Of a DNA stretch of 64,000 bases, positions 10,004-54,872 are shown one piece after another. The stretch is from a virus. The DNA is taken from the UHGV virus genome UHGV-0229283. One strand, 5' to 3'. The translations under genes were made by a program, and so were the position numbers. Below the pieces are notes generated by a model. That model made no database searches. It saw only the letters and a list, made by a program, of their open reading frames with translations, and was not told where the DNA came from. Positions within the stretch are counted from its first letter, which is position 1. Each line of letters starts with the position of its first letter.

Positions 10004-10121
10004 GGGACGCTACCACCATGCCCGTTCTCTTATGAACTGCTGCATGTTTCCATGCAGAGCAGACTATATCTTCACCCACACTTGGGGTGTCCACCGCTTC
10101 GGGCCGCTTGGCCCTACTCCG

Positions 10122-10523: not shown

Positions 10524-10671
10524 TTCATCCTCCTAAAAGGAGAAATCATACATAAATTTTTCAAACTGTCAAGCCCATCCTCGCGGATCACTTTGTAGTA
10601 TTTATGTCTTTAGGATTTCCCAGCAATTCAATGGATGCACCTTATAAATTACTTCATAAGGGGGCTATCAA

Positions 10672-39793: not shown

Positions 39794-39898
39794 AAAACAG
39801 ATGCTATGATACCCCGTATGATGCGTAGAAACGCCGTGGCGGGGTTTTTAGCACATAAGGTAGGAAAACGTACTGCCTTTTCATAAAACCCCTCAGAA

Positions 39899-40735
39899 TT
39901 GATTACAGGACGCTACACGATGACTACTATTTTAAACACTCTCGAACTTATCCCCCATAACAAGGTTAGTTATGATTTTCCTAACGTGCGCGGCGACCTT
40001 GAAAGGCTTTACCTTGATGCAGTATATGCCCTTGGTGGTGTAGAATTCTCTACTGACGAGACTGATGAGAGGACTTTCAATCAGGCCAAGGCCAGCGTGG
40101 AAAGTGTGCTTGATGACCTTAAGCAATACGCTACAGGTTCAGAGGTTGAAGGGCTTCTCGATTATGCAAAAGACACTGAACGTGCCTTTGTTGAAAGAGG
40201 TGAGTATGTACTCAATGCCATGCGGCGCATGAACAAGTTCAGTAAGGATATCTTAGATATCGACAATACCTGGAACAGAGAAGACATTGCAAATGGTGTT
40301 GCCTGGATCGCAGAGCAACTGGGTGAGATGTTTGATGGAGGCTCCCATATACGGTACATGATGCAGAATCGAGGATGGCGAGACCTGTATCTTGATTACC
40401 TCGTGAACCTTGTCGGTAACCCGGTAGTAGAGGTGCTTGCACATTATTCTTCTGCTCATGATTTGGTGTATGGTGTCGATGGTCGTATCAAGATTTCTGA
40501 TAATACCGTTACACTTATGAATGGCCCTACTTCCTTGGTCCTTTCTCCTATTCCCGGTGATATGCGTATTGTTTACACAGTCCCAGGAAAGACAGAACGG
40601 TTCCTGATTTCTGTATTGAGCACATTTTTCATTGACATTTGTAATCCGACTCCAGATGAGATTCAAATGTATGAGATTTCTACAGGTACAACCTATGATA
40701 TCCGTAAATGGAAGGAGATATTTGGAGGTAGATGA
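39899..40735 (+). CDS. hypothetical protein (278 aa)
   Basis: Co-oriented ORF. Confidence 0.5.
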   Translation: MITGRYTMTTILNTLELIPHNKVSYDFPNVRGDLERLYLDAVYALGGVEFSTDETDERTFNQAKASVESVLDDLKQYATGSEVEGLLDYAKDTERAFVERGEYVLNAMRRMNKFSKDILDIDNTWNREDIANGVAWIAEQLGEMFDGGSHIRYMMQNRGWRDLYLDYLVNLVGNPVVEVLAHYSSAHDLVYGVDGRIKISDNTVTLMNGPTSLVLSPIPGDMRIVYTVPGKTERFLISVLSTFFIDICNPTPDEIQMYEISTGTTYDIRKWKEIFGGR

Positions 40736-41310
40736 TGAATTTAAATTCTGAGATGGAATCAATACCGTCTACAAAACATCGAGGTAAGGTCTGTGGTATA
40801 GGGGTTAACGATGCGCCTTTTACCACCAGTATGCGTAAAGATGGTAAGATGTATCACCACACAGCCTATAAAGATTGGCATAACATGATAAATAGGTGTT
40901 ATAGTGGAAAGTACCCATCTTATCGGGGGGTTGTTGTATCTGAAGAATGGCACCACTTCATGGATTTTTATCTTTGGTGGCAGATGAATTATCATGATGG
41001 TTTTCAACTTGATAAGGACCTCTTTGGTGATAAGTTAAAATACAGCCCTGCAACATGCAGATACATACCTTTGTGGATGAACTGTTCTTTACATGGTGGT
41101 GGTAAACCTGGTGTACATTACCACAAAGCCTCTGGCCTTTATCGCTCAGGAAAGGATGGGATATTTGGTACATTTGAGGATGAGGATTCTGCTTGGAAAG
41201 TTTGGCGTAATAATTTTGTAAATACAAAAGATTATGATATTTGGAACAGCCTGGATATTTCAATCAGGGAGAGATTTTGTAAATTGAAAGACATTTGTAT
41301 GATATTTTAA
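40732..41310 (+). CDS. AP2-like DNA-binding domain protein, paralog 3
   Basis: KVCGIGVNDAPF...YKDWHNMINRCYSGKYPSYRGVVVSEEWHHFMDFYLWW. Confidence 0.5.
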   Translation: MMNLNSEMESIPSTKHRGKVCGIGVNDAPFTTSMRKDGKMYHHTAYKDWHNMINRCYSGKYPSYRGVVVSEEWHHFMDFYLWWQMNYHDGFQLDKDLFGDKLKYSPATCRYIPLWMNCSLHGGGKPGVHYHKASGLYRSGKDGIFGTFEDEDSAWKVWRNNFVNTKDYDIWNSLDISIRERFCKLKDICMIF

Positions 41311-41548
41311 TTTTACATGATATTTTAAAATTCGAAATGGTTTTCAAAATCGTTTTTGAAACGGATTTCATCTTCCCTGCAAATTTTTAAATAAAGAGTT
41401 TTGGGAGTAGGTTATCTCAAACCTTTGTGGAAGCTATGTCGAAAAATGATGCACAAGTGTATGATTGCTATAGGTATCTTGGCATCAAGATTGGACATTT
41501 ATCTCAAATAGGCGAAAAAGATATCTCAAATTTTCAGGTAGAAAACTC

Positions 41549-41760
41549 TGGGTTCTCGATCGACTTTTCGTTTTCAAAAACGTATTTGCTCTCACTATCA
41601 AAAAATTTTTCTCTATATCAACCGGGTTCTCGATCGGTTTTTCAAAATCGAGATCGTAAATGTTTTTTCTCTAGAAAAAATTTTTCGGCCCGGTTCTCGA
41701 TCGAGATCTCAATTTCCAGATCGTATTTGTTTTCTTACGCGAAAAAATTTTTTAGGGGTA
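41549..41760. repeat. three tandem direct repeats of about 70 bp (GGTTCTCGATCG...CGTAWWTG...AAAAAATTTTT)
   Basis: Units begin at 41549, 41622 and 41688. Each starts with GGTTCTCGATCG and ends with an A6T5 tract. They sit in an AT-rich, palindrome-rich intergenic zone. Confidence 0.6.
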
Positions 41761-42131
41761 TCGCTCAGTATATCACATGAAAATCAGAAGTCAATATTTA
41801 AATTTTTTGTTGAATGAGAAGCATTCTTATTTAGTTATTTGAATGATAATCATTCTCATTTGCTGAATGACAGGCACCCCCGGTGTTTTGTACTCCGGTT
41901 TCAATGTTCCCGCTATGTGTATAATATAGGATACACGGCCCCAGGTTGCAAGCGTCTTTACAATTCTTTACAAATAGACTTTAGGCGAGCTACCGGCGAT
42001 CCACCTTCCAACCAGGTCTCCGCGCCTGGTATGTTAGCCCCGCCTTTCCGCCGTGGGGTGGCGTCTCTTCTCCTGTCTGATAAATATAACCCATGTCGGG
42101 GCCGTTTGCAAGCCCCGCGATAAAATATTTT

Positions 42132-42317
42132 TTACTCCCAGGAGTCCGCGAGCACTTCCCCATTTTCCGCTACAATTCTCACCCTGGTAAATCCTGCATT
42201 ATACATTTTCAACGCGAAGGGTAAAGGCACGATCCTAACCTGGGGCGCTGCGCTTTCCGTCTCCCAGGTGGAAAGGGTGACCATTGTCTCACTCGTTGTT
42301 ACTTTTGCGTTTTCCAT
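42132..42317 (-). CDS. small hypothetical protein (61 aa), divergently transcribed from the small-gene cluster
   Basis: It carries the same AAAGGTAAACGAAATG initiation region as the plus-strand cluster, but on the minus strand. Confidence 0.45.
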   Translation of the reverse strand: MENAKVTTSETMVTLSTWETESAAPQVRIVPLPFALKMYNAGFTRVRIVAENGEVLADSWE

Positions 42318-42420
42318 TTCGTTTACCTTTATTTGTGGGCGTCCTTATATAGTACACTAACCAGGCCTGGGCGCAAGCCCACACGAACAAAAATATTTTT
42401 AATTTATTTTCATCCAGGGG

Positions 42421-42449
42421 ATTGACGGCAATTAGTAAAGCGCTTACTA
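42421..42449 (+). promoter_or_regulatory. sigma70-like promoter (TTGACG, 17 bp, TACTAT) for the first cluster gene
   Basis: Hexamers and spacing read directly from the sequence. Confidence 0.5.
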
Positions 42450-42497
42450 TCCATCTCATCAGGTCCCCCGTCGCCCACACTTAAAAGGTAAAATAGA

Positions 42498-42791
42498 ATG
42501 AAAATTTCCGCTAACAAACAATTGATCGACACTGTAAAAAATTATATCCGCCACCCGTATGAGTTCGGTGGGTATCCGAAAATTTTAATTATGCGTGATG
42601 GTGGTTGCCTTTGCTCAAAGTGTACGCATGAAAATTTTACCCGCCTATTGGAAGAATTAAGGGATGAGAGTGATCTGGCATGGATGCCAGCCGATGTGGG
42701 TATTTTCTGGGAAGGTGCGGATTTCCCATGTGGTAATTGCCAGACTCCGATCCCTAGTGCATATGGAGATCCCGAAGAAGAAGAAGAATAA
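42498..42791 (+). CDS. hypothetical Cys-containing protein with acidic tail (97 aa)
   Basis: AAAAGGTAAAATAGAATG initiation region. CLCSKC...CGNC cysteines. DPEEEEE C-terminus. Confidence 0.55.
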   Translation: MKISANKQLIDTVKNYIRHPYEFGGYPKILIMRDGGCLCSKCTHENFTRLLEELRDESDLAWMPADVGIFWEGADFPCGNCQTPIPSAYGDPEEEEE

Positions 42792-42799
42792 ATATTTAA

Positions 42800-42829
42800 T
42801 TGACACGGGCCAGTGTCCGGGGTTACAAT
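42800..42829 (+). promoter_or_regulatory. promoter with -10 (TACAAT) inside hairpin CCGGGGTTACAATCCCCGG
   Basis: TTGACA, then 17 bp, then TTACAAT. A perfect inverted repeat flanks the -10. Confidence 0.45.
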
Positions 42830-42879
42830 CCCCGGACCTGACAATCAAAACAAAAAACTACACAAATCGAGGTTACAAC

Positions 42880-43047
42880 ATGAAAAACATTTCTTTTACT
42901 ACCCGTGACCAGGCCCGCGCTTTTGCCCGTAATGTTAACAGCAAGGTAACCACGGCGGCGCGTTTACGTCAACCTGTTAAAGATGGCGCCGGGCAATGGG
43001 TTATCCCTGGGATCAACCACGGCAAAACCTTATCCCTGGCTAAATAA
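42880..43047 (+). CDS. small hypothetical protein (55 aa)
   Basis: ATG after CGAGGTTACAAC. The longer track ORF starts upstream inside the promoter. Confidence 0.45.
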   Translation: MKNISFTTRDQARAFARNVNSKVTTAARLRQPVKDGAGQWVIPGINHGKTLSLAK

Positions 43048-43140
43048 AATATTTTATCCTGGGCGCTTGCTTTCAGTTAGCGCCTTTGATAAAGTGTTTT
43101 CTCAGGCGGCAAGGGCCGCGATAAATCGAGGTAAAAAGCA

Positions 43141-43926
43141 ATGTCTACGTTTAAACTTAATAATGGTCTGGTTGTCAACTCTGAATCCGAGATCGTGCAT
43201 AGTGTACCTGGTAAAAAATCCACAGCAAAAAAGGGTTATGTATTATATAAAGGCCCGTCAGTCCTGGATAAGGCCCCGATCGTGGTCATTGCTACAATGT
43301 CAACCGCTAACGATAAAACAGGCGACATGGTTCAAACCTGGATCATGCGAGAAGATGTTAGCCCACTGGAAGCAAGCGCGAAAAAACTTGATTCCTCCGT
43401 TTGCGGTATGTGTCCCCATCGTACCAGCTTAAACGGCGCTTGTTATGTGACGCTACACCAGGCCCCACTGTCAGTCTGGAAGTCTTACAAAAAAGGCAAC
43501 TATAAAGACCTTGATTCTCGCGATCTGGTACATTTTGCGGGTCGTCATATTCGTTTAGGTTCCTACGGTGATCCGGCGGCGGTTCCTTTTGAGGTATGGC
43601 AAAACATGATCAACCATACGCAAGGTAATACGGGGTACACTCACCAGATCAACCATAAGAATTTTGATCATCGTATCGCTACCATTTGCCAGATCTCCGC
43701 CGATACGGAAAAACAAGCGATCACAGCATGGCGCAAGGGTTATAAAACTTTTCGCGTGAAAACTCCCAACATGCGCCGCCTGGAAGGGGAGATCACTTGC
43801 GTTAATACAACTCACAATATTAGCTGCTTAGATTGCGGCTTATGCGATGGTAAACGCGCCAACGTCGTGATCGACGTTCACGGCAGATCCGCAAAAAGAT
43901 TCGATAAATTCGAACGTATCATTTGA
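43141..43926 (+). CDS. hypothetical Cys-rich protein (261 aa)
   Basis: CGAGGTAAAAAGCAATG initiation. Several CxxC pairs. Confidence 0.55.
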   Translation: MSTFKLNNGLVVNSESEIVHSVPGKKSTAKKGYVLYKGPSVLDKAPIVVIATMSTANDKTGDMVQTWIMREDVSPLEASAKKLDSSVCGMCPHRTSLNGACYVTLHQAPLSVWKSYKKGNYKDLDSRDLVHFAGRHIRLGSYGDPAAVPFEVWQNMINHTQGNTGYTHQINHKNFDHRIATICQISADTEKQAITAWRKGYKTFRVKTPNMRRLEGEITCVNTTHNISCLDCGLCDGKRANVVIDVHGRSAKRFDKFERII

Positions 43927-43951
43927 CAACCGCCACACGATAACAGATAAT
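43923..43951 (+). promoter_or_regulatory. sigma70-like promoter (TTGACA, 17 bp, GATAAT) followed by 5'-UTR hairpin GCCGGGGAATTCTCCCCGGC
   Basis: Read directly from the sequence. Confidence 0.45.
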
Positions 43952-43999
43952 ACAAATCAGCCGGGGAATTCTCCCCGGCCCTAGCAAGGGTAAAATATC

Positions 44000-44269
44000 A
44001 TGGCAATGAATCTCAGGTCTTTAAAGCTTATGCGCGATTTTAACAAGTGTTTTCACCAGGTCGCCCAGTATGGCGAGTGTATCAGCATATCAAAAGAGGC
44101 CTACAACGTGGATCACTTCCATCACGGCCCTGATTGCCTGATCTCAGTCCTTGTTAAAAAATTTAACTATCTTGGGCATGAATTCACCTTTAAGATCTCA
44201 GATCTTGATAATAAATATTATCTAGCTGGCGATATATGCGCCGCTGGCTGGAAAGATTTAAGAAAATAA
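44000..44269 (+). CDS. hypothetical protein (89 aa)
   Basis: AAGGGTAAAATATCATG initiation region. Confidence 0.5.
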   Translation: MAMNLRSLKLMRDFNKCFHQVAQYGECISISKEAYNVDHFHHGPDCLISVLVKKFNYLGHEFTFKISDLDNKYYLAGDICAAGWKDLRK

Positions 44270-44274
44270 TATTT

Positions 44275-44303
44275 GACACCAGGCCCGGAAAGGGCCTATA
44301 ATT
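44275..44303 (+). promoter_or_regulatory. consensus sigma70 promoter (TTGACA, 17 bp, TATAAT) with hairpin GGCCCGGAAAGGGCC in the spacer
   Basis: Perfect -35 and -10 hexamers at optimal spacing. Confidence 0.6.
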
Positions 44304-44345
44304 ACCAGGCACCAACAAACTAAACACTAAACGAGGTAAAATATC

Positions 44346-44858
44346 ATGGGCTGGACTGGCATTTATTCTAATCTTAATAACAAAAAATTTGTTGAAAATT
44401 ATCTGACTGATAACCGCGTGATCGAAACTTCTGTTGTAGGCAATGAAGTTTATCAACTTGCAAGGGCGAGGGATGAAAGTCTTTACATTCGTGTAACAAT
44501 TCTTTCTCGTAAAGATGGTATGGTCTTTTATAAAGATATGGATGAAACCTGCGGCCCGTGTTATTATAACTGTCCTGAAAAATTCCTTAAGCGATCCATG
44601 CAAAAAGATGAATTTTCCGTTAATTGGCGTGCCGCTTGCCGTAAACATGCCAAATACAAAAAAGAGCAGAAAGCATTGATTGACCGGATCAAGATCCTGA
44701 AAAACGGCGATCGCGTGGAAATGGTATCCGGTCGTGTGGTTGTCTTTGAGTTCCCACATAACCGCGCCCGATTTGCTGGACGCCTGGCGGATGTTGCACC
44801 AGGTAAACAAAATTCTCTTTTTGCATGGTCTTATAAAGACGTTGCAAAGATTCTTTAA
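44346..44858 (+). CDS. hypothetical protein (170 aa)
   Basis: CGAGGTAAAATATCATG initiation region. Confidence 0.55.
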   Translation: MGWTGIYSNLNNKKFVENYLTDNRVIETSVVGNEVYQLARARDESLYIRVTILSRKDGMVFYKDMDETCGPCYYNCPEKFLKRSMQKDEFSVNWRAACRKHAKYKKEQKALIDRIKILKNGDRVEMVSGRVVVFEFPHNRARFAGRLADVAPGKQNSLFAWSYKDVAKIL

Positions 44859-44917
44859 ACCGCTATACTGATTAAAGCCGGGGAATTGTCCCCGGCATAA
44901 CCTAAAAGGTAAACAAA

Positions 44918-45301
44918 ATGGCCTACATGAATAAAGAGAAGAAAGCTAAAATTGTTGAAGCGGTTAAAGCTGTATTGCCGAAGGGTTGGAAAGTTACGTT
45001 TAAAGTAATTCACTATTCTACGATCCGTTGTACCGTTCGATCCGCGCCGTTCAATTTGAATGATGTTTTAGATTTAACAGATTGGGAACGGGAAAACGGG
45101 CACAAGGATTTAAACACATACCACTATGAAAGATATTGCAAAACTCCTGAATTCAAAAAGGCTGTTGGCGAAATCATCGAGGCATTAAATACAGATAATT
45201 ATAACAATAGTGATATAATGACAGATTATTTTGATGTCGGTCACTATATCGGCCTACATTTTGGCGGCCATGATAAGCCATTTAAAAACAGCGCCGCGTA
45301 A
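44918..45301 (+). CDS. hypothetical protein (127 aa)
   Basis: AAAAGGTAAACAAAATG initiation region. Confidence 0.55.
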   Translation: MAYMNKEKKAKIVEAVKAVLPKGWKVTFKVIHYSTIRCTVRSAPFNLNDVLDLTDWERENGHKDLNTYHYERYCKTPEFKKAVGEIIEALNTDNYNNSDIMTDYFDVGHYIGLHFGGHDKPFKNSAA

Positions 45302-45303
45302 TA

Positions 45304-45665
45304 TGAAAGAATTGTTGATTCTACTCATATTTTGTTATTATGCAAAAATTCACGTCAGGATCTGGCGTGTTATAAAATGGTTTTACTACTGGTACAGGGT
45401 TAAAACAATGTTCCACTATATAGAATATCGCTTCCAGGGGGAGGATTACCACACCAGGAGATCCGGGCCGTTAAATGATTTGGAGGGTAGCGGCCTGATT
45501 TGTGAGATTAAACACCGGGGAGGCGTGGTCCTGGTACATAAAGAGGGATCCTTCGACTACATCGAAGAGCTGATCGAATATCGCAAAAAACAGATCGCGG
45601 AATGGCGAGCGGAAACATACAACCACAGGGGATCAAGATATGACAGCAAAAAGCCGCAACTTTGA
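45304..45665 (+). CDS. hypothetical protein (about 120 aa; start at MKELLILL)
   Basis: Its ATG overlaps the upstream stop (TAATATG). The longer track ORF overlaps the preceding gene. Confidence 0.45.
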
Positions 45666-45855
45666 GAAGATGACAAGCCAGCGCGATCGCCTTGCTTTTG
45701 GTGAGACTAACGAGCGGCGCGAGCGTAACAATAAACGGCATAAGCCGGAACGGATCGCGGTTCAATGGTCGCCGGACCAGTATGATCCGAAGCTAAATAA
45801 ACGCATCGCCGATCGTAAGCGTAATTTGCAGCGATACGCCGTAGCAGGTGAATAA
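45640..45855 (+). CDS. hypothetical basic protein (71 aa)
   Basis: R/K-rich. Overlaps the upstream gene end. Confidence 0.45.
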   Translation: MTAKSRNFEKMTSQRDRLAFGETNERRERNNKRHKPERIAVQWSPDQYDPKLNKRIADRKRNLQRYAVAGE

Positions 45856-45860
45856 CCAGT

Positions 45861-45886
45861 CCGGGGAATTATCCCCGGTTTTTTTT
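45861..45886 (+). terminator. rho-independent terminator (CCGGGGAATTATCCCCGG plus T8)
   Basis: A perfect hairpin followed by eight T residues. Confidence 0.65.
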
Positions 45887-46189
45887 ATGCAAAAAAGTGA
45901 ATTTAGCGAGATCTCAGCGTAGCAATGCACTTACCAGGGTTACAGATTGAAGCGCTTAGAATCGATTTGAGGGCGTTTTAGATGGTATCCGATAACCGCG
46001 CCCCGCTCAAAACGTCGCAAATTTAGTTACCGGTTGAAACTAATTGCATAACAGCGATTTTCTATGCACATCACTGCATATGAGAACAGTTCTCAACAAT
46101 TCTTAAAAATATTTGTTGCATCCTGGCGGCGTTATGCTATCCTTTAATCAGTGGCGGAATTCACCGCCACACTGAAAAAGGTAAACACT

Positions 46190-46366
46190 ATGGAAAAGCA
46201 AAACATGTATAAAACGGCCTATAGTTCTGAATTTTGTTGTTATGTTGGGATTAATCGCGCTTGGAAAGATTCAAATGGTAAATGGATTTTTGAGTGTTCA
46301 AATGTGGCAAAGGGCCTAGATAATTTCCTTTTTCGTGAGTCAGAACTAGAAAAATTTTGTCTTTAA
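46190..46366 (+). CDS. small hypothetical protein (58 aa; start MEKQNMYK)
   Basis: AAAAGGTAAACACTATG initiation region. The longer track ORF starts at GTG inside a hairpin. Confidence 0.45.
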   Translation: MEKQNMYKTAYSSEFCCYVGINRAWKDSNGKWIFECSNVAKGLDNFLFRESELEKFCL

Positions 46367-46369
46367 TTG

Positions 46370-46399
46370 TTGACACTGGTTAATGTGTGGGGTTATACT
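46370..46399 (+). promoter_or_regulatory. promoter/operator module copy 1 (TTGACACTGGTTAATGTGTGGGGTTATACT...CACATTGACAAGTG)
   Basis: TTGACA, then 17 bp, then TTATAC. The -10 is flanked by the inverted repeat AATGTGTGG / CCTACACATT. Nearly identical to the module at 47870. Confidence 0.55.
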
Positions 46400-46444
46400 T
46401 CCTACACATTGACAAGTGAAACAAATAACCAAAAGGTAAACAAC

Positions 46445-46729
46445 ATGCAAAACGTAAAATCTGAAATCGCCGCTCTTGAATCAAAATTCCTGGGCAAAAT
46501 GGTGTATCATAACTATGGTCAAATCGCTTTTGGCGTGGTAACCGGAATCGATGATCGCGATCCCAATAAATTACGTTTACGCGTGAAGTTTACCCGCAAC
46601 AATACTCCGGCGCATATCAAAAAATATGACAACCGCGCGGATCGTGTTCGTTGCTTACTCCCTCAATCTGTTACCGTGTCCCGTGTTCAATATGGGATCT
46701 ATAATCAGACAAACCAGATCAACAAATAA
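46445..46729 (+). CDS. hypothetical protein (94 aa; start MQNVKSE)
   Basis: AAAAGGTAAACAACATG initiation region. Confidence 0.5.
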   Translation: MQNVKSEIAALESKFLGKMVYHNYGQIAFGVVTGIDDRDPNKLRLRVKFTRNNTPAHIKKYDNRADRVRCLLPQSVTVSRVQYGIYNQTNQINK

Positions 46730-46767
46730 TCAATAGCGGGGCCTTGCGCCCCATTAAGGCGGCTACC

Positions 46768-46986
46768 ATGTTTGGATTTATTATATTGGCTTGTCATATT
46801 TCTGTTAGTTCGATGGCATTACAATGTGATTGGAATGTTAAAAAAACATTCCCCACGGAACAGGCTTGCAACGTGTACGAAAACGAATACACGTTAGGCA
46901 AAGGCGAGCAGATCGGGATCTGCGATGAGTTAGACCCCGGCGTTAAAGAAGGCGATAAGCGCCCTATTCTCACCCTCAAAAAGTAA
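46768..46986 (+). CDS. small secreted Cys-containing protein (72 aa)
   Basis: ATG after TAAGGCGG. Signal peptide MFGFIILACHISVSSMA. Four Cys in the mature part. Confidence 0.45.
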   Translation: MFGFIILACHISVSSMALQCDWNVKKTFPTEQACNVYENEYTLGKGEQIGICDELDPGVKEGDKRPILTLKK

Positions 46987-46996
46987 GGTAACGATC

Positions 46997-47188
46997 ATGT
47001 TTGAAGTATTCGCGGGTATGTGCTTTTATGGTGCGCTGGCTTTAAAACAGTGTGATGATTATGTAGTAGAAAGCTATGATGATCAATTGACTTGCGAGAT
47101 CGTCGCCGTTGACTATCAGCGCCAGGGGCGCTGGATTAATCCGGCCTGCATACCATCGCCGGAAGTCGAACCGATGCCGGAAAGCTAA
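46997..47188 (+). CDS. small secreted Cys-containing protein (63 aa)
   Basis: Hydrophobic N-terminus MFEVFAGMCFYGALA. Cys residues. Confidence 0.45.
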   Translation: MFEVFAGMCFYGALALKQCDDYVVESYDDQLTCEIVAVDYQRQGRWINPACIPSPEVEPMPES

Positions 47189-47271
47189 AATAATCATTGA
47201 TCCCCCGGCCCGGTTAGGTTATATTACTTGGACCGGGCAAGATTGGCCCACTAACAAAAAGGTAAAATAGT

Positions 47272-47595
47272 ATGGAAAAGGCAAACAAATTTTTCTTTCT
47301 GGAAAATGTTAATGACAATGTTAATTGTGACTTTAATCGCCAGGGTGAAAAAACCATGCTAGTATTTTGCCATGAGAATGACAGCGAACAAACGGACCGT
47401 TTAACCGTCCTGATCCGTACTGAAAAATCTATTCAATCCCATAGCGGAAAACTTGAAAACCGCCACTTTATCGCCTACACGCTTGAAAGAAGCGGAGTAA
47501 CAATAAAACAGGCTGACAGCCTGCCTATAACTACCCCGGATCTGGTCTGGATGTTTACAACTGCTATTGTTAACGATGTTTTCCGTTCTAACTGA
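47272..47595 (+). CDS. hypothetical protein (107 aa)
   Basis: AAAAAGGTAAAATAGTATG initiation region. The preceding hairpin has TTATATTAC in its loop. Confidence 0.5.
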   Translation: MEKANKFFFLENVNDNVNCDFNRQGEKTMLVFCHENDSEQTDRLTVLIRTEKSIQSHSGKLENRHFIAYTLERSGVTIKQADSLPITTPDLVWMFTTAIVNDVFRSN

Positions 47596-47612
47596 TTGAG
47601 AAAATTAATCTG

Positions 47613-47651
47613 AAAAGTCGCTTGCAAACGTGAGCGACTTTTATTATATTT
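47613..47651 (+). terminator. rho-independent terminator
   Basis: AAAAGTCGCTTGCAAACGTGAGCGACTTTTATTATATTT. Confidence 0.6.
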
Positions 47652-47700
47652 AATGCACAGGGCGGCAATGGTGCGACGGCCCAAAATAAAGGTAAACGAA

Positions 47701-47865
47701 ATGAAACTTTCCCAGCAATTTGCTCAAGAATGCCGCGAAGAAGCGAAGTATTATTTTGATCGCGCCTTGCAAGCGAAAGCAGAAGGCCTGAATTATTCCC
47801 GCCGTGTTTGCTTACAGGTCGCTTTATTGAATCGCAAAAACGCCCGTAAATGGGCCGCCGAATAA
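47701..47865 (+). CDS. small hypothetical protein (54 aa; start MKLSQQ)
   Basis: AAAGGTAAACGAAATG initiation region. Confidence 0.45.
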   Translation: MKLSQQFAQECREEAKYYFDRALQAKAEGLNYSRRVCLQVALLNRKNARKWAAE

Positions 47866-47869
47866 TTTG

Positions 47870-47899
47870 TTGACACTGGTTAATGTGTGGGATAAGATA
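47870..47899 (+). promoter_or_regulatory. promoter/operator module copy 2 (TTGACACTGGTTAATGTGTGGGATAAGAT...CACATTGTCAAGTG)
   Basis: The first 25 nt are identical to the module at 46370, and the same inverted repeat flanks the -10. Confidence 0.55.
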
Positions 47900-47951
47900 C
47901 CCGCACATTGTCAAGTGAAACAAAAAAACCACACAAAACGAGGTAAACAGA

Positions 47952-48722
47952 ATGACCACTAAAATCACCGTTACTTATTACATCGACTCCGGCAAGCTGA
48001 ATGCAATGTATACATTGCGCCGCCGTAATTTTGGCGGTGGCGTTTTTGTAGATTCTTACATTTGCAATCTTTCAACCGATCCCCAAAAAGCAGAAAATAA
48101 AGCAAAGGAATATTTTGATCGAGTAACCGCGCGGATCGCCAATACAGAAAACTTTGAGCAAGTTTTTGCAGGCTATGCGGATTTTGAGCTGGGGCAACGT
48201 CGCGGTAAATTGTCGATCGTCGATACGGCCCGGATCGAAGAAATCGAAGCGGGGCGCTTTCCGTTTGGCAAGCATTGCGGTAAAACGTTTGCCGATGTTA
48301 AAGAATCATATGTTTTATTTTTTGCTGATATGGCAAACAAGCCAGACAACGGCCCGGTAATGGAAGCATTAAGCGCGGCTTGTTTGGGCTATGCTCTTGA
48401 TCATGGGTACATTGCAGCCCGTGACCAAAAACGCGCCGAGCGTAAGGCCGAGGATTTAAAAAGCAACTGGATCGGCAACATTGGCGATCGCCTGGTTTTT
48501 GAGGGTGAGATCGTTTTTTCTTATCTAAAAATTGATGAGTGGAGTTTATCATCTTACTATATTATAAAAATTCGCCAGGGTGACGATCTGGTTACCTACA
48601 TCGGATCAAAAGAGTTAGGCCCGGTTGGCGCGGTTATTAAGTTTAAAGCTACCGTCAAAAAACATGATACATATCAAGATGTTAAAACAACCGTTGTAAA
48701 CCGTCCCGCCATTATGGCATAA
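47952..48722 (+). CDS. hypothetical protein (256 aa)
   Basis: AACGAGGTAAACAGAATG initiation region. Confidence 0.55.
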   Translation: MTTKITVTYYIDSGKLNAMYTLRRRNFGGGVFVDSYICNLSTDPQKAENKAKEYFDRVTARIANTENFEQVFAGYADFELGQRRGKLSIVDTARIEEIEAGRFPFGKHCGKTFADVKESYVLFFADMANKPDNGPVMEALSAACLGYALDHGYIAARDQKRAERKAEDLKSNWIGNIGDRLVFEGEIVFSYLKIDEWSLSSYYIIKIRQGDDLVTYIGSKELGPVGAVIKFKATVKKHDTYQDVKTTVVNRPAIMA

Positions 48723-48770
48723 TGTACACCAGGCCCCGGATCGCCGGGGCAACTTTTAGAGGTAAACAAA

Positions 48771-49061
48771 ATGAAAAATGTTAACGCGCTGTTAGAAAAG
48801 GCTGAAAAATTAGTCTGGGCGGAAATAGAAAAGAAAGTAACAAAAATTCTACTGAGTGAACGCAACGCAGCGCGGGGCTTTATTTGTTGTATGGGCGGTT
48901 ATTTCTGGATCGACAGCAACGGCGATGCAATAGACGATCGCGCCTGGATGAATCCTGTTTTCAATATCTTTGATAAATACGATGATGCTTTCAAGCTTAC
49001 GGGGATCGGTTGGCGCTGGGATCTGGTTAATGGCGAGGTTGTAAAAACAACCGATTGGTAA
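48771..49061 (+). CDS. hypothetical protein (96 aa)
   Basis: AGAGGTAAACAAAATG initiation region, after hairpin GCCCCGGATCGCCGGGGC. Confidence 0.5.
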   Translation: MKNVNALLEKAEKLVWAEIEKKVTKILLSERNAARGFICCMGGYFWIDSNGDAIDDRAWMNPVFNIFDKYDDAFKLTGIGWRWDLVNGEVVKTTDW

Positions 49062-49217
49062 ATGCAAATGATACGTTTTCTCAATATGCGATCTGGTAAA
49101 ATTTATCGCTGGATTGAAAACCGTGTTTTGGTTGAAACGACAAAAGGCTGGCGACGTGTAGATCACTTGCGCCCCGCCGATCTGGCTTGCTTTCCTTTCA
49201 TGGGGATTAAAAAATGA
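49062..49217 (+). CDS. small hypothetical protein (51 aa, not in the ORF track)
   Basis: TAAATG overlap with the upstream stop. Its stop overlaps the next ATG. Confidence 0.3.
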   Translation: MQMIRFLNMRSGKIYRWIENRVLVETTKGWRRVDHLRPADLACFPFMGIKK

Positions 49218-49681
49218 TTAGTGTACGAATGTTTTATTACGATGAATTATCAGAACAGGCAAAAGCCGCCGCCCGCGCTAACGTTGTGATCCCCGAGGTG
49301 GAAGCACTGATTCGTAATGTTGGCAACGCTCGCCAGGCCTGGAAGGAAAACATTCACCGGGCAATTAATGACCCTTATCACGTCCGCCGGATCTACAATG
49401 GACAAATGGCGCTTTACAAAATCCGGCACCAGGGCGAGGCTTATTTGATACCCTACATCCGGCAAAACTGCACAATTTATCTGGCCGATGGATCATATGT
49501 TTACTATGATTGCAACAAAAAACGGATCGCTATTGTTAACAGTGGTTATCATGGATTATTACCCGACGATCTCCAGGTGGCGGCGCGTGATGAATATGTA
49601 AGAGTAAACGATCGAGGCCCGGCATACTTTAGAAAATTATATTCCGACATTGCAAAGGCGAAGAGATCCGGCCCGGCATGA
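49214..49681 (+). CDS. hypothetical protein (155 aa)
   Basis: Co-oriented and coupled ORF. Confidence 0.5.
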   Translation: MISVRMFYYDELSEQAKAAARANVVIPEVEALIRNVGNARQAWKENIHRAINDPYHVRRIYNGQMALYKIRHQGEAYLIPYIRQNCTIYLADGSYVYYDCNKKRIAIVNSGYHGLLPDDLQVAARDEYVRVNDRGPAYFRKLYSDIAKAKRSGPA

Positions 49682-50048
49682 TAGGAAAATCTTTACAATT
49701 CCAGGGCTTGTTTTCGGTCCTGGTTTTTGTTATTCTGTTTTTGAAGCGGCAACGATGGACACCGGAGGAAAGTCACCGGAGGTGCCCGCCATTCTGGTAA
49801 TGAGAATTACTCTCAACAACGCCTAAAATCTTATGCAAAATAGTGAATATGGCGAGATCTCCGATAAAATGGACTAGGGTACAGCCTGGACGAAAAACCG
49901 CTTAAAACTCGTTACAGGGCGTTTAAAGGCCATATAAAAACAACTTGACACGGGAAAACGGCTAAAAAGTAATTTCACCATGAAATCAATTGCATAGCGA
50001 TGCATAAAGATGCAAAAAGTGAATAATGTAAAGATACGTAAAGAGCTA

Positions 50049-50077
50049 TTGACAGCGATCCCCGCTTATATTATTAT
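50049..50077 (+). promoter_or_regulatory. sigma70-like promoter (TTGACA, 17 bp, TATTAT)
   Basis: Read directly from the sequence. Precedes the gene at 50127. Confidence 0.5.
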
Positions 50078-50126
50078 TTATCTCGTAGGGCAAACAAACG
50101 AAAACAACTTAACGAGGTAAACGAAA

Positions 50127-50486
50127 ATGACTATCATCAATCTGAATTCTACTGTTAAAGGTAAAGATTTTGGCGGCGTAGTAGATCATGATCCGATGTG
50201 GTCGCTTTCAGTTTTCAAAGGCGATTTAATCGACGTCGTTACCCTGGATGGCCCGAGCGACGATTACAAATGTGAAATTCATCTCACTAACTGGTACACT
50301 AACAAAACTTATGCTCTTGATCGCGTGATTATCGGTAGAATTGAATCACTGACAGACGAAGAGACCGGGCAAGATTTTGATTATTATATCAATAGCTCTG
50401 ATCGCGCTGATCGTCTGCTGCAAAAGATTAAAGAAAAAGGCGTTATTGATTTAGCTCTTTGGGTGGACGTTACAGAAAGCAACTAA
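50127..50486 (+). CDS. hypothetical protein (119 aa)
   Basis: AACGAGGTAAACGAAAATG initiation region. Confidence 0.5.
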   Translation: MTIINLNSTVKGKDFGGVVDHDPMWSLSVFKGDLIDVVTLDGPSDDYKCEIHLTNWYTNKTYALDRVIIGRIESLTDEETGQDFDYYINSSDRADRLLQKIKEKGVIDLALWVDVTESN

Positions 50487-50561
50487 GTTAACAGATTAAA
50501 AGGCGTTTAGATGAGCGCCTTTTGATAAGTTATCACCAACAATCAAAAGAGGTAAAAAACA

Positions 50562-50891
50562 ATGACTAAATCAGAATTCTTTAAAATGCTGGATAATCAT
50601 CTAGAATCACACAACTACACTTTCGATCATTTTGGAAATCGAATCAAGCGAGAGGATCGCCAGTATACAGCAAACGAGATCGAGGCCTTCACACATAGCG
50701 AACCAGAAGAGAAGATCGTGAAACTTAAAGCGGCGGATTCAAATTATCCTTGGATTTTTCATTCTTCCGGTTGGTGCCTTGCGGATTGTTGGTATATCAC
50801 CGCTATCTCACATAGAACAAAAGCGGCGGCAGAAAAGCAACATAAGATTTTTACCCGCTGGATCGCTGAGTATAAAGAGCTTAACAAATAA
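50562..50891 (+). CDS. hypothetical protein (109 aa)
   Basis: AAAGAGGTAAAAAACAATG initiation region, after a weak terminator hairpin at 50501..50524. Confidence 0.5.
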   Translation: MTKSEFFKMLDNHLESHNYTFDHFGNRIKREDRQYTANEIEAFTHSEPEEKIVKLKAADSNYPWIFHSSGWCLADCWYITAISHRTKAAAEKQHKIFTRWIAEYKELNK

Positions 50892-50939
50892 TCAAACCGG
50901 GGCGCTAGCCGCCCCGCTATCCTTTGAGGTAAAGCAATT

Positions 50940-51170
50940 ATGATTAATATTAGTGTTGACAAGTTAGCCGAAATCATCCAGAAGGCAGGAGATGAGAAAT
51001 ACGGCGTAAATGATTTTTATTTCATCGGGCAGTATGAGGACGGTCGCTATTATGGCGTGTTGTCTAACAAGGTGAAAAGCCGTAGCAGCGCCGCACAATT
51101 GCGCCGCCCGGAGTTTTTAGAACAAAAGGGCCTTAAAGTAATAAAAGTAATGAAACGCAAAAAAGGTTGA
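50940..51170 (+). CDS. hypothetical protein (76 aa)
   Basis: TGAGGTAAAGCAATTATG initiation region, after hairpin GGGGCGCTAGCCGCCCC. Confidence 0.45.
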   Translation: MINISVDKLAEIIQKAGDEKYGVNDFYFIGQYEDGRYYGVLSNKVKSRSSAAQLRRPEFLEQKGLKVIKVMKRKKG

Positions 51171-51382
51171 TGATTATGAAAACTGTAAAAGCAAAAGATT
51201 TAAAAGGCGGAATGATCATCGAATTACCGGACATTGCACCAGGCTTTAAACCTGGTTTAGTGACTATCACACAAATAGAAATCGAAGCGCCCCACATTGT
51301 GGAAGTATCTTTCTATTACAAAAAGCGCTATATGGCCGACCTTTATCACCCTGAGGCGGAATTTAAACTAATCAGTGAATGA
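51167..51382 (+). CDS. hypothetical protein (71 aa)
   Basis: ATGA overlap with the upstream stop. Confidence 0.45.
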   Translation: MMIMKTVKAKDLKGGMIIELPDIAPGFKPGLVTITQIEIEAPHIVEVSFYYKKRYMADLYHPEAEFKLISE

Positions 51383-51485
51383 GGCTGTAAAGAAAAGGCA
51401 AACCGCTTGCCTGGCCAGATGTTTTCGACTATTATTTATTTCAGGGCGGGAAGATAACCAACCCGCAAAACCGAAGGTAAATAAA

Positions 51486-51656
51486 ATGTCAAATATCCGC
51501 TACAATATCAAAAGCACTTCAAAAACCGGTTATGTGTCTTATGTTCGCCAGGGGTCTACAATGGCTTGGACCTTTGAAGAATGTATGAAAATTGTTACTA
51601 CGCTTTCAGGTGATGATCGCTATATGGGCGTTTTATTTGAGATTGAATTAGCTTAA
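51486..51656 (+). CDS. small hypothetical protein (56 aa; start MSNIRYNIKS)
   Basis: ACCGAAGGTAAATAAAATG initiation region. Confidence 0.4.
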   Translation: MSNIRYNIKSTSKTGYVSYVRQGSTMAWTFEECMKIVTTLSGDDRYMGVLFEIELA

Positions 51657-51661
51657 ACATC

Positions 51662-51688
51662 GGGGCGCTATTGCAGCGCCCTTTTTCG
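51662..51688 (+). terminator. rho-independent terminator (GGGCGCTATTGCAGCGCCC plus T5)
   Basis: Hairpin followed by a T run. Confidence 0.55.
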
Positions 51689-51730
51689 TGTGTTATTCTT
51701 TTACCTCCCTCATTAAACGAGTAACACCAA

Positions 51731-51994
51731 ATGACAAACATGATTTACACTGTAAGCAAAACAAGCCTTTTACGCGCTACCCTGCTGGCTTGCCTTATTG
51801 CTTTAGTGTCTAATACGTGTTTTAACTGGCTGGCTTGCCTGGTAACGACGGAAACAATGGCGCAAGGGTTTAACACCATGATCGACGTTTTACAATTGAC
51901 GTTTTACACTCTGATTAAACTTAATCGCTTTAATCGTTTAGACCGTTATGATCTCCCTTTCTTGATCGCTGGCCTGCTGGCTATCGCGCTGTAA
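51731..51994 (+). CDS. small membrane protein (87 aa, 2-3 TM)
   Basis: LLRATLLACLIALVSNTCF and LPFLIAGLLAIAL are hydrophobic segments. Confidence 0.45.
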   Translation: MTNMIYTVSKTSLLRATLLACLIALVSNTCFNWLACLVTTETMAQGFNTMIDVLQLTFYTLIKLNRFNRLDRYDLPFLIAGLLAIAL

Positions 51995-52019
51995 GGCTCC
52001 ACTACTCCCCAAAAATAAT

Positions 52020-52048
52020 GCCGGGCAACTCCCGGCTTTTGTGTTTTT
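52020..52048 (+). terminator. rho-independent terminator ending the small-gene cluster
   Basis: GCCGGGCAACTCCCGGC followed by TTTTGTGTTTTT. Confidence 0.5.
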
Positions 52049-52407
52049 ATATGTTAGGTTTTATCAATCAATAATCAAAAAGTGATAGGTGACTAAAACC
52101 TGCATAATCGAGATCTCCAGGCGGTAACCCACTAGCCAGGGTAAGAGATAAAGCCTCTCAGAATGGCGCATATTGCGCTTAAAAGGGTATGGCCCTACCT
52201 AACAACCCCAACAATTAATAACGCATGTTATTAACTGAATAAAACATGCATTTTTAAGCATTATGTATGCATAGTGTGAGAATCACTCTCAAATGATAAC
52301 TTTTATCATCTAACCTATTGTGTGAACTGGTTTTATTGAGCATAAAAATAAAATCTTGTCAAATAAAAATCGTTCGCGTAATCGTGGGGAGTGGCGCGAG
52401 CGTAGCG

Positions 52408-52613
52408 AGCGACACAATAACACTAGGGTAACTCAAATGCGAACAAATCGCATTCTCGTTCGCGTTATCGTGGCTCGTAGACGCTACGATCAAGGACGAA
52501 ATTATTACAGTGTATTATCATTACATCCGTAATGATTAGCAATGGAACTTTATCACATCGCCACGATAACACCGATCAACTATCGTTGATCGCCCTAGTG
52601 TTATTGTGTCGCT
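52408..52613. repeat. 21 bp perfect inverted repeat pair (AGCGACACAATAACACTAGGG / CCCTAGTGTTATTGTGTCGCT) flanking a 164 bp palindrome-rich core
   Basis: The left arm is 52408..52428 and the right arm is 52593..52613. The core contains internal palindromes (GATCAACTATCGTTGATC, CATTACATCCGTAATG, GCGAACAAATCGCATTCTCGTTCGC). Direct and inverted GCGTWATCGTGG copies lie around it. Confidence 0.6.
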
Positions 52614-53739
52614 GGTGATGGTAACACCCCGTTATTATTATGTGATTAAATGAAATTTAATGGTTGACAAATAGCAATAAATCACTTGCCAATGTGGGCC
52701 TATGGCCTATGGAAAGGCCTGTTTTTGAGCATGGAAGAAGTGTAAACTGTCAAGTGTTTTTATTATCGAAAATTCCTATCAATGCCTTGCGTGGCAATAA
52801 AGAAAATAGTTACTTATTGTAACTATTTCAATGCTTTAGCATTGCCGGGTATCCGGTCCGTAACGGGCTTATGTGAGAATAGTTATCATTGGGGAAATGC
52901 TCAAAGTATAGCTGTGTGTTAAACACGATTCTCTCTCCTTGTCAAGCTTTTATTTATAAATTTACAAAATATTTATATTTGCGGAATGATTCTCATTTCG
53001 AAATTGAATTCGAAATCGAAATAATAATGATTCTCATTCGTCATCTCATTCACAAAACAACCCTAAAACATGAATAATCACACATGAAACTATCACCACA
53101 GTAACAGTCACACCATGTAATGACCTGAAGCGGCTGGCCTATGCGTCACACTGGTAACATTGGGGCATTATTAGCTTGCTATGTGTTGTTGGTCAGTGCG
53201 TATAACGTGTTTTATGTTAAATGGTGTAATTCATATAAATATAAGCTTGTCAATAGCAAATCGTGCTCTAAGCTGGCAAACCATATGCTTGCTATATGTC
53301 ACATTTGATTATTATTAGTTTCGGCAAGTAACTATCATGCCTGAAGAGGCCCCGAGGAACCGGGAACCGGATCGACCTTGCCCATGATATTTTGTAAAGA
53401 TCCGTAAAAATATTTGACGCCCGGAGCTGTCCGTCTAGCACCGCAGATGGTGAGAACAGGATATTTTTCGGCAAGTGATATTTTCGGCAGGGGGCCTGTT
53501 TTGATTTCCCCACGGGGGAAGGGGTGGTTATACGGGGAAAACAGGGGCCTGTTTACGGTATCGACATATCGGGGAGTCCCTTCAGATTGTGTGTTAATGA
53601 AATGAGTACGTAGTACAATGAGAATCATTCTCATTTACAGACAACCGGGCAGGTCCGGTGATTGTTTCGTGCAGCCTCAGCACCTGTTGCTGTGTGCAGG
53701 ATAACAGGGTTGCCTATTCAGGTCAACCCCTTCGTGCGG

Positions 53740-54027
53740 TCACCACTGATGAAATCTTTTGTGCTCCCATCTCGCCCGGCTGATGATACACCACATAGCC
53801 TGTTCATCATAGAAACCAAGCGCTTTAAGCTCTTGCTTCACATCGCTCAACTGTGCGTATAAATAAAGCTTTTTACTACCTTGACGCAGGAGGATAGCTG
53901 GTACAAGTGTCTTTGCATAGTCCAACAACACCTCTATTCTCTGCCTTTTCCCTTCAGATTTCTTGCGTGGGCAATTCCTGATGTGTGCCAGTTTTGCTGG
54001 CGCTTTTACTACTTTGTTGAAAGCCAT
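53740..54027 (-). CDS. hypothetical basic protein (95 aa)
   Basis: First minus-strand gene after the noncoding zone. Confidence 0.4.
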   Translation of the reverse strand: MAFNKVVKAPAKLAHIRNCPRKKSEGKRQRIEVLLDYAKTLVPAILLRQGSKKLYLYAQLSDVKQELKALGFYDEQAMWCIISRARWEHKRFHQW

Positions 54028-54443
54028 AGAGGTTCCTTAAAGAATGGTTGTGATGATCAGACATTGTTGTGTGGTTCTCATCATTGCATGGGTGGCCTGG
54101 CCCGTTGGAGGGTCGTTATTGTCATCATCGTCATCTACGAATAAGGTAAGGACCACCACCACGATGGCAACAATCCCCAACACCCAAAGAACTATAAGTC
54201 CCATCATTCATCCTTCTTAGCCACTGGCCCAATAGATACGTACAACATCATCCCATAAGGGATAAGGATCAGGAGCACTGTAATCAGCATCCCTAGTAAT
54301 AAGAAACCCATGTCGTCCATAAAATTCTCCTCGTGTAATTGATAGAGGGAGTATAATCGCCGAGCCTGTTTACGTCAAGGTAAATTGATGCTCCACTTTA
54401 GATAAAAGAAAAGGAGCCTCTTCAGACTCCCTTGTGGTGTGGG

Positions 54444-54872
54444 TCAGATATTCTTGACTGCGATCAGGTTTGGGACATACGTACATGTTGGGGAGTAAGT
54501 GGTGTCCTTCCTGCGAAGCTGTGTCTTGCACAGAGAAGCATGTGATTGTGTGTCCACAGGCTCTCGGTCATAGAACGGATATCCGCTGCACATGTACGGG
54601 CGATCCTCGTAAATTGAGCACTTGTTGTCTTTCAGCTTTGTGCAGGTAAAGTAGCTGGTGAAGTGATTTGTTCCTTTACCAACTTCCTCACGACCTGCAA
54701 CAACAAGAGGATTCCGTTTGTAGGCCTCATCCCTGGAGATTGGTTTCATCATCTCCCCGTGGATAGCAGATATTCTTCCGGCCCTGATTTTTTCGTGGAA
54801 GTCTTCGTGGGTGATGTTGTCTATGGCGATAACTTCACAACAGGCACTGCAATTATGGCAATGTTTTATCAT
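54444..54872 (-). CDS. YkgJ-family Cys-rich protein (putative zinc- or Fe-S-chelating CxxCxxCC domain)
   Basis: N-terminal HCHNCSACCEV plus C-terminal KCSIYEDRPYMCSGYP. Confidence 0.5.
   Translation of the reverse strand: MIKHCHNCSACCEVIAIDNITHEDFHEKIRAGRISAIHGEMMKPISRDEAYKRNPLVVAGREEVGKGTNHFTSYFTCTKLKDNKCSIYEDRPYMCSGYPFYDREPVDTQSHASLCKTQLRRKDTTYSPTCTYVPNLIAVKNI

Follow-up and report, generated by a model that had tools for sequence, protein, structure and literature searches.

Paralogous noncoding modules in the early region of a Mydovirus genome as candidate cis-acting control DNA

The DNA analyzed here, a stretch of 64,000 nucleotides from the virus genome UHGV-0229283 that is referred to below as the window, is part of a Mydovirus (Vequintavirinae) genome, with 96 to 97% identity to Klebsiella phage KpS8 and Proteus phage Mydo over positions 45500-52800. 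Its early region is made up of numerous small genes on the plus strand whose promoters are strong and sigma-70-like and whose ribosome sites read AGGTAAAC, and among these genes lie the noncoding elements that are the subject of this study, modules A, B, and C. A preliminary description, made from the letters of the window alone, had reported three stretches that share a set of blocks in a fixed order. Both the stretches and the ordered blocks are present where it placed them, and to the three full copies we can add a fourth, truncated one, D, at 39858-39915. The modules and the features that immediately surround them are as follows, with promoters predicted by a position weight matrix (PWM).

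45861-45878, plus strand: terminator before A, a rho-independent hairpin with a T8 run, directly abutting A
45885-46099, plus strand: module A, a full paralog (nhmmer E 1.9e-48, and alignments), with the 5' bipartite motif at 45886-45903, GAGATCTC at 45908-45915, the 3' motif ATGCACATCACTGCATA at 46064-46080, and a Fur-box-like palindrome at 46081-46095
46116-46143, plus strand: PA, predicted sigma-70 promoter (TTGCAT, 16-nt spacer, TGcTATCCT, extended -10)
49701-49723, plus strand: terminator before B, after the gene ending at 49681, its stem with compensatory changes between genera
49724-49815, plus strand: B1, a member of a separate repeat family, with CACCGGAGG direct repeats at 49760-49768 and 49774-49782 and a Fur-box-like palindrome at 49801-49815
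49830-50041, plus strand: module B, a full paralog (nhmmer E 1.5e-46), with the 5' motif at 49832-49849, GAGATCTC at 49854-49861, a run of TGNAWW hexamers in steps of ~10 bp, and the 3' motif at 50010-50025
50028-50042, plus strand: GTAAAGATACGTAAA, the CpxR-consensus box of B
50049-50077, plus strand: PB, predicted sigma-70 promoter (TTGACA, 17-nt spacer, TATTAT), with the first gene starting at 50127
52020-52036, plus strand: terminator before C, a bidirectional hairpin after the last plus-strand early gene (ends at 51994)
52078-52292, plus strand: module C, a paralog whose 5' motif is degenerate (hidden Markov model match 52106-52292, nhmmer E 7e-35), with GAGATCTC at 52110-52117, a Fur-box-like palindrome at 52277-52291, a second palindrome at 52294-52308, and no gene after it
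39858-39915, plus strand: D, a partial fourth copy covering alignment columns ~34-99 (nhmmer window E 0.0095)

Paralogy and conservation of the modules

Modules A, B, and C are true paralogs. Within the window, blastn aligns A with B (65% identity over 176 nt, E 1e-9) and A with C (63% over 97 nt, E 4e-4), matches between paralogs of different genomes reach E values of 1e-10 to 1e-20, and the same paralogs are found in every other-genus locus compared. Together with the matches to an nhmmer profile built from 18 copies, this homology is above chance. The paralogs are ~50 to 56% identical within the window (mean, 53 to 59% across genomes), from which it follows that the duplications are old. 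The sequence CGAGATCTC occurs 4 times in the window versus 0.44 times expected. The truncated copy D was also detected by nhmmer at syntenic places in relatives (E 1.7e-5, 2.8e-4, and 3.6e-4 in the loci L003, L007, and L004, respectively); it is flanked by a terminator-like hairpin and by the ATG (39920) of a gene for 278 amino acids, and its ACAGGA block is the ribosome-binding site of that gene. The region 49685-50126, which had been taken as one element, proved to be composite: the terminator comes first, the unrelated element B1 follows, and only then does paralog B begin.

In the complete 146-kb genome of phage KNP2, the profile identifies exactly three full copies (nhmmer E 1e-33 to 6e-48), all in the early region. 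Three full copies per genome are also the rule in Mydovirus and in most Seunavirus genomes; PVP-SE1 has two, Erwinia phage Hena1, for Henunavirus, has two at the least, and the synteny and orientation of the modules are retained in seven genomes from three genera. Two copies each (E 1e-7 to 9e-11) were found in the Stephanstirmvirinae phages FBKp34 and 05F01; those of FBKp34 sit between annotated terminators and promoters, and 05F01 has matching hits. No module copies were found in rV5. Further copies in related genomes, which the preliminary description had proposed to look for, therefore exist in Mydovirus, Seunavirus, Hena1, FBKp34, and 05F01. When viral contigs were scanned for the 16-mer ATGCAAAAWAGTGAAT, the hits were for the most part single and due to chance, and nothing could be learned from them.

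The modules are under strong purifying selection. Orthologs of A are 73 to 75% identical between the window and PVP-SE1, those of B are 86 to 91% identical over 283 to 293 nt between the window and 4MG, GAP31, and EC152, and those of C are 73 to 82% identical, compared with 46 to 56% identity at four-fold degenerate sites of those few flanking genes that are shared. For most of the early genes in the window, the other-genus loci compared hold no homolog, and between the window and Hena1 the only DNA-level matches over 39 to 54.5 kb are the noncoding modules and one 106-bp gene fragment. The modules are thus among the most conserved early-region DNA in the window and nearly the only DNA that can be aligned to the most distant relative. 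It is conceivable that they are decaying relics of old duplications with no present function, as the degenerate 5' motif of C in Mydovirus and the truncation of D might suggest. With conservation far above that of synonymous sites and of the neighboring genes, in three genera and a second subfamily, we regard this as extremely improbable.

Flanking transcription signals and the search for an encoded product

Each copy, D included, lies just behind a terminator-like hairpin, and all modules are oriented with early transcription. A and B combine a terminator with an early sigma-70 promoter, and C has the terminator only. PA, which is conserved in PVP-SE1 and 4MG, precedes a first gene starting at 46190; the homology between A and B extends beyond the modules to include the promoter and the start of the transcribed sequence, and the 3' motif ends 22 to 23 nt before the -35 hexamer where no palindrome is inserted. 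The earlier statement that the elements head gene subclusters consequently holds for A and B. It does not hold for C, which comes after the last early gene and opens ~1.7 kb of DNA that is noncoding up to the convergent minus-strand genes, so that C heads no genes. The gene before module A (45640-45855) is T7 gene 1.1-like (PF08200), and the gene after module B (50127-50486) is T4 gp30.8-like (PF06019). In the literature on Vequintavirinae promoters (rV5 and CB7), we found only sigma-70-like promoters and an unexplained "non-coding" box, and nothing on the modules.

No open reading frame (ORF) conserved across the module copies was found, and the longest open stretch is 28 amino acids in A and 40 amino acids in C. 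The claim that the elements hold no plausible ORF is accordingly sustained for A and C and needs amendment for B, where two short ORFs exist, neither of which is kept in Hena1. The first, a 40-amino-acid ORF at 49678-49800 (plus strand), overlaps the upstream stop codon (ATGA) and the terminator, whose hairpin would encode its hydrophobic part. The annotation of Mydo lists it as a coding sequence, and that of other relatives has another short ORF inside B1; because Hena1 retains only a truncated form and the Vibrio phage that carries B1 (see below) lacks it, it is probably not a gene. The second, a minus-strand ORF of 43 amino acids (49874-50005), was rejected for its loss in Hena1. Also rejected was an ORF of 11 to 14 codons from the ATG of the 5' motif, which lacks a ribosome-binding site, is of variable length, and does not occur in C.

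A structured small RNA or riboregulator, the first candidate of the preliminary description, is not borne out. RNAalifold, suggested in that description and applied here to 18 diverse copies, returned no consensus structure (-0.18 kcal/mol for the plus strand and -0.61 kcal/mol for the minus strand), and lineage-specific folds showed almost no covariation. A stacked-pair scan with shuffled controls found no helix of at least 4 pairs kept in 85% of the copies on either strand, and the z-scores of single-sequence folding were only -0.5 to -2.1. At gathering thresholds, Rfam gave no match on the modules; its sole match in the window is a group I intron elsewhere, at 10040-10683 on the minus strand (RF00028, 66 bits, E 1.6e-14), and a permissive Rfam scan of 41000-54500 gave two chance-level hits only. 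Nor was a sigma-70 promoter common to all paralogs found inside the module. A weak candidate promoter lies upstream of B only (49800-49829; ATGAGA, 18-nt spacer, TAAAAT) and overlaps a Fur box, and a minus-strand candidate (TTGAGC-17-TACCAT) was rejected, being present in only part of the A lineage (the window and PVP-SE1) with a score common by chance.

A noncoding RNA or long leader that needs no conserved fold, such as a base-pairing small RNA, a processing site, or a protein-binding leader, is an alternative that we consider quite unlikely. It could be transcribed by read-through of the terminators or from the weak promoter at 49800-49829, which would start at the 5' motif of B. Its case is helped by the strict orientation with early transcription, by the dense conservation of B, and by D, whose central block is the ribosome-binding site and leader of a gene and is hence certainly transcribed. 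The lack of a shared structure, of covariation on either strand, of an Rfam match, and of a promoter common to the paralogs all speak against it, as does the strong terminator that A abuts, and a loop-less 8-bp palindrome and 10-bp phasing of A-tracts are without an obvious role in RNA.

DNA architecture and the control-module reading

The features shared by the modules resemble those of DNA recognition sites. The conserved 5' motif, TATGCAAAAWAGTGAATWT, is followed in most copies by the loop-less 8-bp palindrome GAGATCTC, which occurs four times in the window, always in noncoding DNA, and only 4 times in the 146-kb KNP2 genome, always within the same early-region span. At both ends of the module stands a bipartite direct repeat, ATGCAAAA-n-AGTGAATA, whose two half-sites are separated by one helical turn; its two copies are ~177 bp (~17 helical turns) apart. 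Further conserved blocks are CGCTTAGAA, GCGTTT, and GGTAT. Pairs of TGNAWW hexamers are found on the plus strand only and at fixed alignment columns (5, 153, 163, 174, 184, and 202); spaced ~10 bp apart, they run into the sigma-70 -35 hexamer in A and B, with the second copy of the bipartite repeat belonging to the run, and in B about seven such units lead into the TTGACA of PB. In 8 of the 13 copies tested (B and most C copies), A-tract periodicity of 10 to 11 bp reaches at least the 98.8th percentile for the window, and the strongest 215-bp window of this periodicity in the whole 64 kb starts at 49811, overlapping B. In a wedge model of curvature, a predicted minimum within the most-curved 2% of positions is seen for each of A, B, and C, and D is the single most curved site of the window. 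Inside the core, no convincing or enriched match was found for Fis, IHF, CRP, ArcA, PhoB/PhoP, TyrR, RcsB, or DnaA sites, and inspection by eye revealed no convincing sigma-54, sigma-E, sigma-28, or sigma-32 site.

A compound enhancer or operator region, the second candidate of the preliminary description, would be in keeping with this architecture, that is, with the palindrome, the ~10-bp repeats running into the -35 hexamer, the motif repeated at 177 bp, the phased A-tracts, and the Fur and CpxR matches described below. We give an even chance to the view that A, B, C, and the truncated D, which descend from old duplications, are copies of a cis-acting module of ~215 bp that, in Mydovirus, Seunavirus, Henunavirus, and some Stephanstirmvirinae, acts as DNA and not as RNA in the control of promoters lying downstream of it. 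In such a mechanism, the module would form the long upstream half of early-promoter control regions. Its phased sites would be occupied by one or more DNA-binding proteins, which might be a host regulator of the winged-helix type, the C-terminal domain of the RNA polymerase alpha subunit, or a phage early protein. Once bound, these proteins would wrap the bent DNA that separates the distal from the proximal bipartite site, or draw it into a loop, and this wrapping or looping would set the output of the early transcription units. The adjoining Fur-type and CpxR-type boxes may add inputs from host iron and envelope stress, and at C the module would adjoin the terminal noncoding region instead of a gene block.

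Several observations weigh against promoter-upstream control. No DNA-binding domain was found with Pfam among ~20 early ORFs. A-tract phasing is weak in the A lineage (70th to 91st percentile), the periodicity of weak and strong base pairs (W/S) is only moderate, with other spectral peaks present, and the predicted curvature maxima, which depend on the wedge parameters used, fall at differing alignment positions in A, B, and C. No convincing downstream promoter (best PWM scores, 7 to 8) or gene was found for C, and D is without both module ends, so that a position upstream of promoters is not the whole story. Finally, B is ~90% identical between genera along its whole 284 nt, which is denser than is typical of regulatory DNA made of sites and spacers and might be the result of recent recombination instead.

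Tandem phased sites combined with a distal looping site are known from upstream activating regions such as the OmpR sites at ompF/ompC and the Fis/UP region of rrnB P1. The modules resemble them in their same-strand half-sites ~10 bp apart, from about -105 to -35, in the further copy of the site ~17 turns upstream, and in their bent, A-tract-rich DNA. They differ in that the module hexamers (TGCATA, TGAATA, and TGCAAA) are unlike the OmpR, PhoB, PhoP, and ArcA consensus sequences and in that strict Fis, IHF, and CRP patterns are absent from the modules.

The nearest described class is the promoter-early stem-loop (PeSL) cassette of T4-type phages, a repeated intergenic cassette of terminator and early promoter (PMC2839356, PMC4122927). 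Both are composite terminator/early-promoter cassettes in the hyperplastic early region of a large lytic myovirus, where the cassettes are kept and the genes between them vary. The modules are longer than PeSLs, fewer, and more diverged, and they are built differently inside: stem-loop and promoter are separated by an additional ~215 bp of conserved DNA, which carries its own palindrome, bipartite repeat, and phased arrays, and there are 3 to 4 modules per genome. The many near-identical copies that characterize PeSLs are not seen, with three full copies per 146 kb at ~50 to 56% identity. Given this precedent, the modules might serve merely as recombination anchors, that is, as points of homology for the swapping of early genes between coinfecting relatives, and otherwise as an ordinary terminator and promoter. 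The genes between the modules do differ by genus while the modules stay, and the close relative KNP2 differs from the window at 47.6 to 49.2 kb. The identity between the paralogs is too low for recombination within a genome, the ~170 bp between terminator and promoter with their own blocks and phasing would be superfluous in a plain cassette, and PeSLs number dozens per genome as opposed to three or four modules. We therefore hold this explanation to be very unlikely.

More PeSL-like repeats of the early region are two near-identical short promoter cassettes at 46364-46431 and 47861-47944 (TTGACACTGGTTAATGTGTGGG...), which both match a single cassette in the Seunavirus genomes. The cassette at 47861-47944 falls inside the 47.6- to 49.2-kb segment that cannot be aligned to KNP2.

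If control by the modules is accepted, their conservation would make them markers of the control points of the early program and fixed landmarks for engineering, as safe insertion sites or promoter parts. The rV5-like and phi92-like phages are widely used therapy candidates whose early regions consist almost entirely of uncharacterized genes. The modules would also offer a tractable case of long, bent, multisite bacterial control DNA.

Neighboring boxes and the terminal noncoding region

The palindromes and direct repeats that flank the modules match, as judged from their sequences, Fur and CpxR consensus sites and are enriched. A 7-1-7 palindrome, TGAGAATnATTCTCA, is found at 41815, 41844, 46081, 49801, 52277, 52874, 53022, and 53619, and all seven of its genome-wide matches in KNP2 lie within the same 10.7-kb early-region span. 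The Fur-type sites fall within the noncoding control DNA, which makes up 6% of the window, in 7 of 7 cases, and nine other transcription-factor consensus patterns showed no enrichment there. The sequence at 53617-53635, AATGAGAATCATTCTCATT, is letter for letter the Fur-box consensus published for Xanthomonas, Enterococcus faecalis has TGAGAATGATTCTCA and TGAGAACGATTCTCA as Fur boxes, the site at 41844 is one base per half-site off the E. coli Fur consensus, and the 19-bp sites at 41842, 49799, 52872, and 53020 have at most 4 mismatches to the Fur consensus. By sequence, then, the 7-1-7 and 9-1-9 palindromes correspond to published boxes. They differ from them in a conserved CAAC extension, which is not part of the Fur box; the palindromes often carry this CAAC(AA) and then a TAAAAT-like hexamer. 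They flank the modules outside the shared core, are absent from the A copies of 4MG, GAP31, and EC152, and lie at about -62 or overlap only weak promoters. The preliminary description had placed the palindrome after the blocks, which is correct for A (46081-46095) and C (52277-52291) and not for B, where it lies upstream (49801-49815). Palindromes resembling these are carried by rV5 and by a Vibrio phage as well. In the collection of literature searched, we found no report of Fur boxes in the early regions of lytic phages.

The direct repeat GTAAA-N5-GTAAA, which we take to be the CpxR consensus, occurs as an exact box three times versus 0.16 expected, at 41957-41971 (minus strand), 50028-50042 (plus strand), and 53394-53408 (plus strand), in each case 5 to 6 bp upstream of a -35-type TTGNNN hexamer. 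Only the boxes at 41957 and 50028 belong to a full predicted promoter. Seunavirus B copies retain the box that precedes PB, and in FBKp34 an inverted box stands ahead of a promoter; among the modules, only B has such a box inside or adjoining it.

It is possible, if doubtful, that the modules and the Fur and CpxR boxes wire the early program of a strictly lytic phage lineage to its host as switches gated by iron, by envelope stress, and by a further reader of ATGCAAAA-n-AGTGAATA and GAGATCTC, or that 7 to 9 Fur boxes per genome titrate Fur and thereby derepress iron uptake. Should the boxes work, the outcome of infection would depend on the iron and envelope state of the host, which would matter in iron-limited infection sites.

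The separate family to which B1 belongs has minus-strand copies at 41844-41914 and 53619-53661. In B1, the CACCGGAGG repeats, 14 bp apart, are followed by TGCC..CATTC and then by the Fur-like palindrome. The element is also present in Stephanstirmvirinae and is near-identical in Hena1 and Vibrio phage 1.121.O (L128, ~1515-1600), and its conservation is independent of reading frame.

Module C opens a noncoding region between convergent gene sets. Within this region, 52372-52615 is a conserved noncoding core with three copies of GTTATCGTGG (two direct and one inverted) and a perfect 21-bp inverted repeat (52408-52428 and 52593-52613) that shows compensatory changes in EspYZU08/PVP-SE1 and in Hena1; from its sequence, this core is a candidate for an origin, a packaging structure, or a structured RNA. 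Farther on, ~52922-53440 is the counterpart, by alignment, of the direct terminal repeat of 519 bp that is annotated in Hena1, the start of which corresponds to ~52922, so that the physical genome end is probably at ~52922-53440, some 600 bp past C. In a transposon screen of a related phage, no insertions were obtained in the equivalent ~2-kb region (bioRxiv 10.1101/2025.11.20.689424). Taken together, the conserved repeats, the inverted repeat, and the insertion-free region suggest that C borders a probably essential cis-acting region, and the terminal noncoding region adjoining C may hold a replication origin or packaging site.

This setting bears on the question of whether the modules themselves are replication origins or other DNA-transaction sites (for replisome loading, gyrase, or packaging), with the phased repeats as iterons on bent DNA beside A+T-rich unwinding stretches and the link to promoters secondary, as when transcription activates an origin. 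The iteron-type phage origin ori-lambda offers a parallel, in that the modules too have phased repeats on intrinsically bent DNA with an A+T-rich stretch behind them, to which C adds a large palindromic region. In addition, the modules hold a palindrome, C stands at the edge of the terminal region with its GTTATCGTGG repeats, compensated 21-bp inverted repeat, and insertion-free counterpart, the conservation along the whole length of B is unusually dense, and a terminator precedes every copy while a clear promoter follows only A and B. Since C and D are not strictly tied to promoters, a role of this kind retains some probability, and we rate it as unlikely. It would be unusual for 12 kb to hold three or four origins, and the modules, unlike ori-lambda, are several within this distance and promoter-tied in A and B; DnaA-box and IHF patterns are not enriched, and no initiator gene was identified for the modules. 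The fixed distance from the 3' motif to the -35 hexamer and the homology of A and B through promoter and leader fit a promoter function better, and rV5 is without modules altogether.

Some minor observations concern the surrounding DNA. The noncoding block at 41.3 to 42.5 kb contains a single minus-strand gene, at 42132-42317, which encodes a DUF7170 protein. Three tandem repeats of 67 to 74 nt (CCGGGTTCTCGATCG...AAAAAATTTTT) lie at 41548-41752, downstream of a minus-strand promoter (41794-41767) and of two Fur-like palindromes, and one of them contains the fourth GAGATCTC of the window; the ORF annotated over these repeats in Mydo is probably spurious. Across the window, GATC (334 sites versus 242 expected from base composition) and CGATCG (22 versus 12 expected) are overrepresented.

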